Source of the DNA: TPA_inf: Saccharomyces
Lineage: Eukaryota
DNA: 64,000 bases
Assembly: GCA_000146045.2 (NCBI GenBank)
Contig: BK006943.2
Coordinates: forward strand, 576,001 to 640,000
Direction: 5' to 3'
A program made the translations under genes and the position numbers. This document shows, one piece after another, positions 63,072 to 63,941 of the stretch. How positions within the stretch are numbered: position 1 is the first letter of the stretch; the number at the start of each line of letters is the position of its first letter. The notes beneath the pieces are model-generated. The model did no database searches and was not told the DNA's origin. It saw only the letters and a program-made list of their open reading frames with translations.

Positions 63072-63198
63072 CTATTTCTCAAGCAAATGTAGATTGGAGC
63101 CAAGACGAACATTTAAAGCCGTATAGAACTACTTTGTTTCTTCTTCAGATGATCATTTCTCATATATGGTCACGTGGCTCGATGTTTATCGCTTTATC

Positions 63199-63219
63199 TT
63201 TTTTTTTTTTTTTTTTTTT
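63199..63219. repeat. T21 homopolymer run (poly(dA:dT) tract)
   Basis: Direct reading: 21 consecutive T on the plus strand. Confidence 0.95.
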
Positions 63220-63708
63220 GCTTTTCATTTTGGCTCTGCTCTCTGTATTAGCTCATCATTTAACGCAAATGACCACGAGACAATAAACCGACGAGGAATG
63301 TGCTCATATGTCTCGCCAATACCTCTAAATAATTGACCGCGCGATTATTTAGTGTGACCAGAGCAAAGTAGCTTTGCGTCCGACCATGCAACCATGGATA
63401 TACTCAAAAATGGCAATAGTGTGCCCCTAATACGTTTGCTGGCCAGTATCCCTTTCTGAAATAAGCTAAACCCTTGCAACCACCAGGGGTGCCGCCGTCC
63501 TAACTTTCCAGCCTGGCAGCGCGTCGAGTCGCCGAATGTTGCGGGCGCTGCCCCGCCCGCAACACCGCGCCCGCCCTGCCTCAGCTTAACCGAAACCACA
63601 CGGGTCTGCCATCTTCCATATACCCTGGCTCTTCTTTCACAATGCCCGCTCACAACGCCAACTGCAAAAGAAGCCCGCCCTTAGTCGGTTTTCCCCACTT
63701 TGATATAA

Positions 63709-63727
63709 CCCCCCCCCCCCCCCCCCC
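63709..63727. repeat. C19 homopolymer run
   Basis: Direct reading: 19 consecutive C on the plus strand. Confidence 0.95.
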
Positions 63728-63941
63728 GCATCAACTGGTAATTTAACCCAAACACCACGGGGTCATAATTTAAAAGCGAAAAACCTTAAAGCGTTCTCGA
63801 AGAAATCTTCCTGTAGATGATGTCGTAGCAAACTTATCTTTTAGAGTGTTTGTGCTTACTGCATTGTCAGATCAAAATTTACGTAGCCGCCCTTTTCAAC
63901 CCCTGTCGAAGAGTAGCATAACAGCAGCGTAGTGAACGTGC

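Follow-up and report, generated by a model that had tools for sequence, protein, structure and literature searches.

The RSM7/YJR115W intergenic region

The window, by which we mean the whole 64-kb stretch of DNA that was analyzed, comes from chromosome X of Saccharomyces cerevisiae. Its most GC-rich part, referred to below as the island, lies in the middle of the 966-bp intergenic region that forms the divergent promoter of RSM7 and YJR115W. On the left, the RSM7 (YJR113C) coding sequence occupies positions 62232..62975 of the minus strand and is transcribed away from the island; its translation is found as an exact protein in S. cerevisiae chromosome X records and carries the Pfam Ribosomal_S7 domain. 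On the right, the annotated start of YJR115W (63942..64000, plus strand) leads into an (AC)n(AT)n microsatellite in the promoter region that begins at 63986, and whose (AC)n length ranges from 9 to 22 across strains. The conserved YJR115W open reading frame (MSPYMTIPQQ...) begins 216 nt 3' of the annotated start, beyond the window, and we flag that the annotated start is placed inside an unstable microsatellite.

The island (63480..63730) has a GC content of 63.7%, against 38.9% for the window, and a GC skew of -0.38, so that it is rich in C on the strand shown; in its core (63480-63600) the GC content reaches 69%. When the 64 kb are ranked in 250-bp windows, the top windows all fall at about 63300-63600 (maximum 0.636; 99.9th percentile 0.598), in agreement with the initial annotation, which had singled out this stretch as exceptional in GC. 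Reading of the sequence and a script also reproduced at their positions the other features that it had described: the 250 bp of GC-rich DNA itself, a 21-T run, a 19-C run whose end lies 215 bp 5' of the ATG at 63942, and a perfect inverted repeat. Its view of the region as part of a promoter was likewise borne out, in that strong conservation of sequence blocks sets in precisely where the C run reaches its 3' end.

Three of the claims made on first inspection were not supported, among them the mitochondrial origin that is treated further below. The island had been called un-yeast-like, but a C-skewed stretch of 55-67% GC stands at the orthologous place in seven of seven Saccharomyces species. 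It had also been said to have no annotated function, whereas the region is present in three published genome-wide datasets, as a Spo11 hotspot, as a conserved G-quadruplex (G4) motif and as a hub of mitochondrial DNA (mtDNA) contacts. These three observations (the wide hotspot, the "conserved" G4 motif and the mtDNA-contact fragment of chromosome X) have never before been connected, and they meet here. The island is native nuclear promoter DNA, and the locus is largely ordinary and already catalogued. An apparent anomaly is thereby removed, the most GC-rich and most "foreign-looking" stretch of the window being native, genus-conserved DNA.

Conservation across strains and species

The initial annotation had proposed a comparison of strains and sensu stricto species. 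The island is kept, nearly invariant, in all 17 strain records and in three metagenome contigs, and it is also kept in six other Saccharomyces species, while the lengths of its flanking runs vary. In the seven species the orthologous stretch has 55-67% GC against locus means of 40-46%, and it is C-skewed in every one of them (-0.12 to -0.26 in the six relatives of S. cerevisiae). This composition is an old property of the locus across the genus Saccharomyces and not the result of an insertion.

The sequence of the core is another matter. Its identity to S. cerevisiae is 79% in S. paradoxus and 58% in S. mikatae, compared with 80%/63% and 76%/60% for neighboring intergenic DNA in the same two species, and the core drifts at the ordinary intergenic rate. 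Segment 63724-63930, by comparison, is 87% identical in S. paradoxus and 87% identical in S. mikatae. Constraint falls on this YJR115W-proximal stretch, some 200 bp long, which opens with an invariant CCCCGCA box.

That box (63724..63730) coincides with the 3' end of the C run and is unchanged in eight of eight genomes; we take it to be a candidate GCGGGG, or Mig1-type, site, although the AT-rich flank that such sites need is not conserved beside it. Alignments identify four further conserved blocks downstream: (A/C)ACCCA(A/C)(A/G)CA(C/T)C(A/G)C at 63745..63760, which we regard as a candidate Rap1 site on the basis of resemblance; the highly conserved AAACCTTAAAGCGTTCTCGAAG at 63781..63802, within which GTTCTCGAAG is invariant, and which is presumably a candidate for TTCnnGAA or CTCGAA sites of Hsf1 or Xbp1 type; GTGTTTGTGCTTACTGCATTGTCAGATCAAAA at 63846..63877; and GTAGCCGCCCTTT at 63883..63897, presumably a candidate URS1/Ume6-type site. 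To the left of the C run, AAGCCCGCCCTTAGTCGG (63671..63688) is a partly conserved block, discernible in S. cerevisiae, S. paradoxus, S. mikatae and S. arboricola, and CCGCG(C/T)GATTA (63337..63347) is conserved, its CCGCG being invariant in all species aligned. On the RSM7 side, a TCACGTG E-box (63170..63176) retains its CACGTG in six of seven species, with CATGTG in S. arboricola, and we assume it to be a candidate Cbf1-type site.

Homopolymer runs

The C19 homopolymer (63709..63727, plus strand) is expanded and polymorphic in S. cerevisiae. Strain lengths of 6, 6, 6, 6, 6, 8, 9, 12, 13, 13, 14, 15, 16, 17 and 19 were read from assemblies, in which homopolymer lengths may be wrong. The 19-C form is also present in the record of the S288C-derived synthetic chromosome synX, and one further strain has an interrupted run, C5TC9. 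Other species have C4-C7 at this site, and in S. uvarum and S. eubayanus G10-G11 runs have arisen at other places within the island. The T21 homopolymer (63199..63219, plus strand; A21 on the sense strand of RSM7) is a polymorphic poly(dA:dT) tract whose length in the 17 strains runs from 6 to 34. Other species have T-rich tracts at the corresponding position, and that of S. uvarum exceeds 20 T.

The initial annotation had called homopolymers of this length rare. This holds for C19, which is the sole run of C or G of at least nine in the 64-kb window, but not for long A/T runs, which are not exceptional: T21 is the longest T run in the window, and T16, A14 and A13 are also there. The expectation that the runs would be prone to slippage agrees with their ranges among the 17 strains (6-19 for C, 6-34 for T). 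Like (AC)n, both are promoter tandem repeats of strain-dependent length, and both are replication-slippage microsatellites. C19 is an expansion, confined to S. cerevisiae and variable among its strains, of the C tract of the CCCCGCA box, and T21 is a length-variable poly(dA:dT) tract next to the conserved E-box near RSM7. Of 2,172 homopolymer indels in a mismatch-repair study, 38 were in C/G runs.

Both runs may also act as stiff, nucleosome-disfavoring tracts at the edges of an open region, and if they do disfavor nucleosomes, promoter output may be adjusted by the length of the allele. Yeast promoters reportedly contain unstable tandem repeats as well as poly(dA:dT) or poly(dG:dC) tracts. 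The present locus resembles such promoters in that its strain-variable homopolymers flank factor sites, and differs from them in having a G/C homopolymer of 19, which is unusual for yeast.

The palindrome

The inverted repeat is a perfect palindrome with 11-bp arms and a 6-nt loop (63537..63564), consisting of TGTTGCGGGCG (63537-63547), the loop CTGCCC and CGCCCGCAACA (63554-63564), as the initial annotation had it. With loops of 3-10 it is the longest perfect inverted repeat in the window, although repeats of at least 11 bp occur in 30% of locally shuffled windows, so that its length alone is not beyond chance at the scale of the window. For the island itself it is rare, appearing in 0.07% of shuffles. 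Folded as single-stranded DNA it has a free energy of -16.8 kcal/mol (z = -4.1), and folding z-scores range from -3.3 to -6.0.

The palindrome is present only in S. cerevisiae, S. paradoxus and S. mikatae, and is missing from the other four species. The version in S. paradoxus is perfect over 15 bp and that in S. mikatae is imperfect, while the loop is identical in all three. Three stem pairs have been changed on both sides; covariation is 0.244 against 0.096 in shuffles, a value that 3 of 500 shuffles reach. That three species retain the stem while its pairs have changed together exceeds what chance would give. In S. paradoxus, four adjacent changes have brought arm 1 into complementarity with an arm 2 that looks ancestral, and in one of 20 records (strain record L009) the loop is exactly inverted. 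A scan of metagenomes yielded three more yeast contigs, all with the common orientation, and no further flipped-loop alleles.

Paired changes, stem extension by clustered changes and loop inversion are signatures of template switching (PMC8794818), and the clustered reverse-complement changes, the extended stem and the inverted loop were all found here. The palindrome is a young element whose self-complementarity would be kept up by intrastrand template switching during replication, and a selected function is not needed to explain it. It shares perfect stems, simultaneous compensatory changes, stem extension and loop inversion with the template-switch hairpins of Monttinen and Loytynoja 2022 (PMC8794818). 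Those hairpins, however, lie in RNA genes, whereas this one lies in untranscribed or unannotated promoter DNA, where the mechanism is read from sequence patterns only. The locus offers a natural test case of whether template switching keeps nuclear palindromes perfect. A palindromic Zn2Cys6 site (CGG-N12-CCG) was also considered as an identity for the repeat and rejected: S. mikatae has lost the CGG triplets, and the pairs that covary are located outside these triplets and preserve complementarity rather than sequence.

G-quadruplex motifs

A regular-expression search found two G4 motifs on the Crick strand under the definition of Capra et al. 2010, with the same spacing as the published entries. 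Motif 1 (63551..63576, minus strand; CCCC-G-CCC...CCC-G-CCC on the plus strand) overlaps the 3' arm of the palindrome and corresponds to entry chr10 639245-639271, Crick, in Dataset S1 of Capra et al. Motif 2 (63674..63749, minus strand) includes C19, or G19 on the Crick strand. Its counterpart, chr10 639368-639444, belongs to the 34 motifs of Dataset S2 that are conserved among the sensu stricto species, a set enriched in double promoters (Capra et al. 2010, PMC2908698). The suggestion that the C run could form a G4 or i-motif is therefore in keeping with its listing as a G4 motif by Capra et al. 2010. As for the conserved class, a same-strand motif with loops of at most 25 lies over the CCCCGCA/CACCC anchor in seven of seven species.

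While both C-tract clusters are in Dataset S1, as expected of motifs of that catalogue, the definition used by Capra et al. 2010 is a loose one, allowing loops of up to 25 nt, and the sole tight candidate here, G19, is a strain-variable homopolymer rather than four conserved tracts. The region can thus serve as a natural test case for whether "conserved G4 motifs" are kept as structures or as ordinary factor sites.

Alternative explanations for the island

Several explanations would have the island maintained by selection. It could be a cluster of GC-box zinc-finger sites, for example of the Mig1/2/3 type (GCGGGG), with selection keeping GC high. The invariance of CCCCGCA and the partial conservation of the GCCCGCCCTTAG block speak for this, as do several copies of GCCCGCCC and of CCCCGC in a single orientation, which would explain the C skew. 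Most copies are unconserved, however, with GCCTGCCC in S. paradoxus and GCTTGCCC in S. mikatae; the core changes at the neutral intergenic rate, and in other species the AT-rich flank that a Mig1 site needs is missing. Among the papers found to mention YJR115W, none deals with transcription-factor binding. We consider this explanation unlikely. Somewhat less likely again is that the island is kept for G-quadruplexes on the Crick strand, or i-motifs on the Watson strand, that regulate the divergent promoter, with G19 as the strongest version. Both C-tract clusters are indeed catalogued, the one bearing C19 among the 34 conserved motifs; a same-strand motif is predicted over the anchor in seven species, beside the anchor lies a tight motif particular to S. 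arboricola (CCCTCCCCTCCCCTCCC), and the steady C skew agrees with maintenance of G tracts. Yet the invariance concerns a particular heptamer and particular blocks rather than just G runs; loops of up to 25 nt are required in five of the seven species, and DNA of 64% GC with C skew satisfies the loose definition almost automatically. Five of the 17 strains have only C6, so that a short-loop G4 is not fixed within the species. It is improbable, too, that the palindrome or the island has been selected as a structural element, whether as a structured non-coding RNA or as a cruciform to which a protein binds. The retained stem with its three doubly changed pairs, the folding z-scores and the common CTGCCC loop could all be read in this way, but template switching yields perfect stems and clustered changes without selection, four species do without the palindrome, and the strain with the inverted loop is viable. 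A search of the whole window against Rfam at gathering thresholds gave no match relevant to the island, and one of 62900-64000 with E up to 10 gave only a chance-level match of 13 bits to a CRISPR-repeat model, outside the palindrome. The same stem also occurs, by chance, in ten unrelated, GC-rich and apparently bacterial metagenome contigs.

Other explanations would make the island a relic. In Torulaspora globosa, RSM7 is followed by PPP4R2 (PSY4-like), Peptidase_M16 (COR1-like) and an ECM13-like gene, so that this very interval has lost two genes in Saccharomyces. The island might then be what is left, in decayed form, of genes that disappeared after the whole-genome duplication, and there is an open reading frame of 102 aa on the minus strand (63345-63653). 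A frame of that length is expected in GC-rich DNA, however, abundant indels of lengths not divisible by three interrupt the alignments, and neither T. globosa protein had a tblastn match in the intergenic DNA of the seven species (best E about 1.4 in a 7-kb database); we regard a gene relic as very improbable. The initial annotation had raised the possibility that the island descends from mtDNA, as an old nuclear copy (NUMT) or as the remains of a GC cluster. The island is GC-rich and palindromic as such clusters are, and the MspI fragment that encloses it contacts many mtDNA fragments (Rodley et al. 2012). Against this, similarity was no better than that of shuffled islands when compared with 20.7 kb of S. 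cerevisiae mtDNA containing 26 GC clusters (CM004311.1, 59588-80343, through COX2; about 62 kb lay outside the comparison). The longest word in common with the 20.7 kb is 11 nt (a G run), which is equaled by 49.5% of shuffled islands; in Smith-Waterman local alignment, the best score against the 26 clusters is 9.5, while shuffles average 10.8; and BLAST matches to the same 20.7 kb are AT-rich 12-15-mers only. CCGG is present in 23 of the 26 clusters (47 sites in the 20.7-kb chunk), and occurs neither in the island nor anywhere between 62762 and 64000. GC content is 16% in the mtDNA chunk, whose clusters measure about 30-75 bp, against 250 bp of 64% GC for the island, and the site is filled by GC-rich DNA in all seven species. 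The island therefore has neither the mtDNA similarity (in the 20.7 kb) nor the lineage-specific insertion of a NUMT, nor is it a 30-75-bp palindromic core containing CCGG in AT-rich DNA. What it shares with mitochondrial GC clusters and NUMTs is that it is a short GC-rich palindromic sequence; it differs in lacking similarity to them, a core of the CCGG or GGCC type and AT-rich mitochondrial flanks. With 20.7 kb of mtDNA compared, a mitochondrial origin can practically be discounted.

The meiotic hotspot and the origin of the composition

In the list of 3,600 hotspots of Pan et al. 2011 (PMC8276760 Table S1, "hotspots" sheet), an interval of 1,023 bp, chr10 638988-640010, is called as a Spo11-oligo hotspot of meiotic double-strand breaks (DSBs). 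With a coordinate offset of 575994 it is placed at 62994..64000 of the window, covering the whole intergenic region and extending to about 64016, past the window end. Of roughly 640 rows of this list, about four are hotspots at least 1 kb wide, and that of RSM7/YJR115W is one of the widest. RSM7 was not named as a hotspot in the literature searched. Like the promoter-associated DSB hotspots that Pan et al. 2011 mapped in nucleosome-depleted regions of S. cerevisiae, this one lies in a divergent promoter with a poly(dA:dT) tract and conserved blocks; unlike them it is wide (1,023 bp), and its GC content is far above that of typical yeast promoter DNA.

The hotspot region sits in a local peak of GC3. 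GC3 is 0.57 for NNF1, 0.59 (0.591) for RSM7 and 0.69 for TDA4, and it is 0.26-0.53, mostly below 0.45, in the other 29 open reading frames of at least 150 aa in the window. The RSM7 value of 0.591 is the highest of the 31 such frames in the window. In segment 63336-63708 we counted 20 AT-to-GC against 8 GC-to-AT substitutions in the S. cerevisiae lineage and 10 against 6 in S. paradoxus, and in the RSM7-proximal part 6 against 14, these counts being small and polarized by an outgroup that is only 58% identical.

We propose that the locus is a native hotspot promoter shaped by GC-biased fixation, carrying slippage runs and a palindrome maintained by template switching, and we would put the probability of this overall explanation at roughly 60%. 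Over the long term, GC-biased fixation at a hotspot that is tied to the promoter and stable in evolution would be the main source of the composition, to which a small number of retained C-rich factor sites would add. GC-biased evolution at a stable hotspot is, in our estimation, the best cause of the composition, if an unproven one. Biased gene conversion in yeast is reportedly weak, and whether GC content causes hotspots or the reverse is disputed. The C skew in all seven species counts against biased gene conversion alone, which does not predict a strand asymmetry, and something strand-specific also acts, such as oriented C-rich sites, maintenance of G tracts or transcription. The region is accordingly a natural test case for whether GC-biased fixation shapes yeast hotspot promoters.

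Contacts with mitochondrial DNA

The MspI fragment that encloses the island (62762-64429 in window coordinates) alone explains the excess of mtDNA contacts on chromosome X (Rodley et al. 2012). Sequence homology, as judged from the 20.7 kb of mtDNA compared, does not explain these reported contacts. One speculation is that the island, with its G tracts and palindrome, is a structural DNA element that captures mitochondrial nucleic acids. If true, it would be a nuclear docking site acting via intermolecular G4s or hairpins and coupling mitochondrial state to a mitoribosomal gene. Motifs for G4 are enriched about tenfold in mtDNA (Capra et al. 2010, PMC2908698), but we hold capture of this kind to be extremely improbable. 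A more mundane source of the contacts would be ligation bias, this 1-kb hotspot being nucleosome-poor and exceptionally open. The frequency of mtDNA contacts is inverse to the level of RSM7 mRNA (Rodley et al. 2012).

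Genomic context and sequence features

The GC-rich island at 63480-63730 is native promoter DNA. It was first flagged in the initial annotation together with a T21 run (63199-63219), a C19 run (63709-63727) and a perfect 11-bp palindrome (arms 63537-63547 and 63554-63564), and all of these are present as described. The island has a GC content of 63.7%, where the window averages 38.9%, and the top 250-bp GC windows of the 64 kb fall within it. No G or C run in the window other than C19 reaches 9, and T21 is the longest T run, with T16 and A14 runs present too. The palindrome is the window's longest perfect inverted repeat with a loop of 3-10 nt; since one as long arises in 30% of locally shuffled windows, it is unremarkable by itself at window scale, but it is remarkable inside the island, where 0.07% of shuffles produce one.

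The ORFs in the last 6 kb of the window encode a myotubularin-like protein, a CMD-domain protein, NNF1, a small VanZ-like protein and a mitochondrial ribosomal S7 protein, the last identical to Rsm7 of many S. cerevisiae chromosome X records, in which ECM13-like, TRAM/LAG1 and M48 peptidase genes lie to the right of RSM7. The published coordinates of YJR113C (638969) and YJR115W (639936) are 967 bp apart, as in the window, which fixes the offset between window and chromosome. The island therefore lies within the 966-bp divergent intergenic region bounded on the left by RSM7 (YJR113C; 62232-62975, minus strand) and on the right by the annotated YJR115W start (63942). RSM7 has the highest GC3 (0.59) of the 31 long ORFs of the window, and values are also high in NNF1 (0.57) and in TDA4 (0.69), just past YJR115W; thus the island forms the intergenic summit of a local rise in GC.

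The gene order in Torulaspora globosa (CP059247.1) is RSM7, PPP4R2 (PSY4-like), Peptidase_M16 (COR1-like) and an ECM13-like gene, and on S. cerevisiae chromosome II PSY4, COR1 and ECM13 adjoin one another. The Saccharomyces spacer is therefore a gene-loss scar, two genes having been lost from it following the whole-genome duplication. Traces of PSY4-like or COR1-like genes were sought in the Saccharomyces intergenic DNA, and none was detectable.

Comparison across species and strains

We compared the orthologous intervals of S. paradoxus, S. mikatae (two records), S. kudriavzevii, S. arboricola, S. eubayanus and S. uvarum. The GC content of the aligned stretch is 55-67% in every species, where locus means are 40-46%; the stretch is at or near the GC maximum of each 8.7-kb locus, and the YJR115W sense strand is C-rich there throughout (skew -0.12 to -0.38). 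The view of the island as un-yeast-like is thus not sustained, GC-rich, C-skewed DNA occupying the same place in all relatives compared. The sequence of its core is not conserved, being 79% identical to S. paradoxus and 58% to S. mikatae, as for other intergenic DNA. Constraint sits in the YJR115W-proximal 200 bp: over 63724-63930, identity is 87% both to S. paradoxus and to S. mikatae. The first block of this segment, CCCCGCA, is invariant in 8 of 8 genomes and is followed by (A/C)ACCCA(A/C)(A/G)CA(C/T)C; further along the segment come the conserved blocks AAACCTTAAAG(C/T)GTTCTCGAAG, GCTTACTGCAT...GATCAA and GTAGCCGCCCTTT. These blocks are candidate Mig1-, Rap1-, Hsf1/Xbp1- and Ume6-type sites.

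Because the C tract at the CCCCGCA box is C4-C7 in the other species, C19 is an S. cerevisiae expansion of it. Forward-strand runs of G11 in S. eubayanus and G10 in S. uvarum, near 63485, where S. cerevisiae reads CCAGGGGTG, are of independent origin elsewhere in the island. At the position of T21, S. uvarum has over 20 T in a row. Long homopolymers thus arise repeatedly in this interval.

Among 17 S. cerevisiae records and three yeast contigs from metagenomes, the island outside the repeats differs only by scattered single bases. The suspected instability of the runs was borne out across the 17 records, C-run lengths being 6 (five strains), 8, 9, 12, 13 (twice), 14, 15, 16, 17 and 19 and T runs ranging from 6 to 34, although homopolymer lengths may be distorted by assembly error. 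Both homopolymers are unstable microsatellites. The longest C allele observed is that of S288C, and the S288C-derived synthetic record likewise has 19; one allele is interrupted (C5TC9). As a counter to assembly error, a T-to-C change near the run is common to the C9 allele and 4 of the 5 C6 alleles (those aligned) and absent in longer alleles. An adaptive evolution study (PMC13067684) dismissed as pre-existing an identical 'YJR115W' mutation, position not given, in many independent clones; a length change at a microsatellite of this locus would fit.

The synthetic record, GCA_033956085.1, is synthetic chromosome X. It carries a 34-bp loxPsym site, ATAACTTCGTATAATGTACATTATACGAAGTTAT, directly after the stop codon of the dubious ORF YJR114W, just past 63053, and its YJR115W 5' region is recoded, with a new CCGG at about 64042.

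Mitochondrial DNA, G4 motifs and the recombination hotspot

A relic of a NUMT or a mitochondrial GC cluster had been proposed, and we compared the island with 20.7 kb of S. cerevisiae mtDNA around COX2 (15.8% GC, 26 GC clusters, 47 CCGG sites). The longest common word in these 20.7 kb is 11 nt, a G run, equalled by 49.5% of dinucleotide shuffles; the best local alignment to any of the 26 clusters reaches a score of 9.5, less than the mean for shuffles (10.8); and CCGG is absent from the island. As the island shows no homology to the mtDNA compared beyond that of shuffles, and GC-rich DNA is at this site in all relatives, we reject an origin from a NUMT or a GC cluster.

Using genome conformation capture, Rodley et al. 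2012 (PMC3264656) identified the MspI fragment chrX 638756-640423 as the foremost nuclear partner of mtDNA, alone explaining the chromosome X excess of mtDNA contacts in glucose and galactose. This fragment runs from CCGG to CCGG around the RSM7-YJR115W promoter (62762 to about 64429). BLAST of the whole fragment against the 20.7 kb of mtDNA found only AT-rich 12-15-mers and (AT)n, and no homology able to cause mis-mapping of the contacts.

The interval is also a DSB hotspot holding catalogued G4 motifs. Our motif search placed two on the Crick strand, at 63551-63576 and at 63674-63749, the latter holding the C run; Capra et al. 2010 (PMC2908698) list two Crick-strand motifs at chr10 639245-639271 and 639368-639444, and the spacing is 123 bp in both, which identifies the two pairs as the same elements, the published ones being numbered in older coordinates. 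The C-run motif is among only 34 that they term conserved across sensu stricto species, which we reproduced with independent assemblies. The hotspot list of Pan et al. 2011 (3,600 hotspots), redistributed in PMC8276760, includes chr10 638988-640010, which at 1,023 bp spans the entire intergenic region and is among the widest of the roughly 640 rows compared.

Evolution of the palindrome

The S. paradoxus palindrome is a perfect 15-bp repeat (CTGTTTCGCGGGCG/CGCCCGCGAAACAG plus one more pair) folding at -21.5 kcal/mol; that of S. mikatae is imperfect and folds at -8.4 kcal/mol. Three pairs have changed on both sides among these two species and S. cerevisiae: 63538-63563 (G-C, T-A or A-T), 63540-63561 (T-A or C-G) and 63542-63559 (C-G or T-A). 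This covariation is higher than in 497 of the 500 shuffles, and higher than in every shifted register. The extension GCTG of the S. paradoxus arm 1 is the reverse complement of CAGC in arm 2 (S. mikatae is nearly the same, CAGT); its four bases are a group of neighbouring changes copied from that arm. One strain (GCA_000977925.3) has the loop exactly reverse-complemented, from CTGCCC to GGGCAG, with both arms intact; the other 16 strain records, the window and the three metagenome contigs have CTGCCC. The combination seen here, of perfect stems, simultaneous compensatory changes at several pairs, an extended stem and an inverted loop, is what has been described for replication template switching (PMC8794818), which probably maintains the palindrome in place of selection.

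A Zn-cluster site, CGG-N12-CCG, was rejected as the reason for the palindrome, as it leaves the covariation unexplained, and Rfam gave no RNA family for the region. No counterpart of the palindrome could be aligned in the remaining four species. In S. kudriavzevii an unrelated inverted repeat, perfect over 13 bp (GATCGGAGGAGCC...GGCTCCTCCGATC), lies 114-148 bp upstream of the RSM7 ATG; missing in the other species, it gives this intergenic region a second perfect palindrome restricted to one lineage.

Origin of the GC-richness

Yeast mutation is AT-biased. With substitutions polarised by S. mikatae, a distant outgroup, the small numbers obtained for 63336-63708 are 20 AT-to-GC versus 8 GC-to-AT in the S. 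cerevisiae lineage and 10 versus 6 in that of S. paradoxus, and run opposite to the AT-ward drift expected in DNA already about 60% GC; the RSM7-proximal part has 6 versus 14. We suggest that GC-biased fixation, acting over long periods at a promoter hotspot that stayed stable, produced the GC-richness together with oriented C-rich sites. The T and C tracts may form stiff, nucleosome-disfavouring edges, whose length could tune both promoters. The C-over-G skew of 63480-63730 and its orthologues persists in 7 of 7 species despite sequence turnover, and is not accounted for by biased gene conversion alone, which keeps alive the alternatives that G4 structure or a cluster of GC-box sites underlies the island.

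The components of the island are of known kinds, mostly catalogued before. What is new is the connection between the three datasets (hotspot, G4 motifs and mtDNA contacts), the exclusion of mtDNA homology over the 20.7 kb compared, the finding that C19 is an expansion of a conserved box whose length varies between strains, and a neat example, in nuclear DNA, of template-switching-like evolution.

The YJR115W start and a tRNA match

The annotated start of YJR115W (169 aa) lies 44 nt before an (AC)n(AT)n microsatellite, which gives the protein an N-terminus of the form ...MN(TH)n(IY)n; between strains, (AC)n ranges over 9-22. Gene callers predict products of 59, 97, 163 or 169 aa for S. cerevisiae strains, and of 87-98 aa for other species. 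As the conserved ORF starts MSPYMTIPQQ, 216 nt downstream, the start given in the annotation is probably incorrect.

ARAGORN called no tRNAs in the window. Rfam matched one at 41919-42019 (forward strand, 49.8 bits); at its anticodon loop 22 nt are inserted, presumably an intron.
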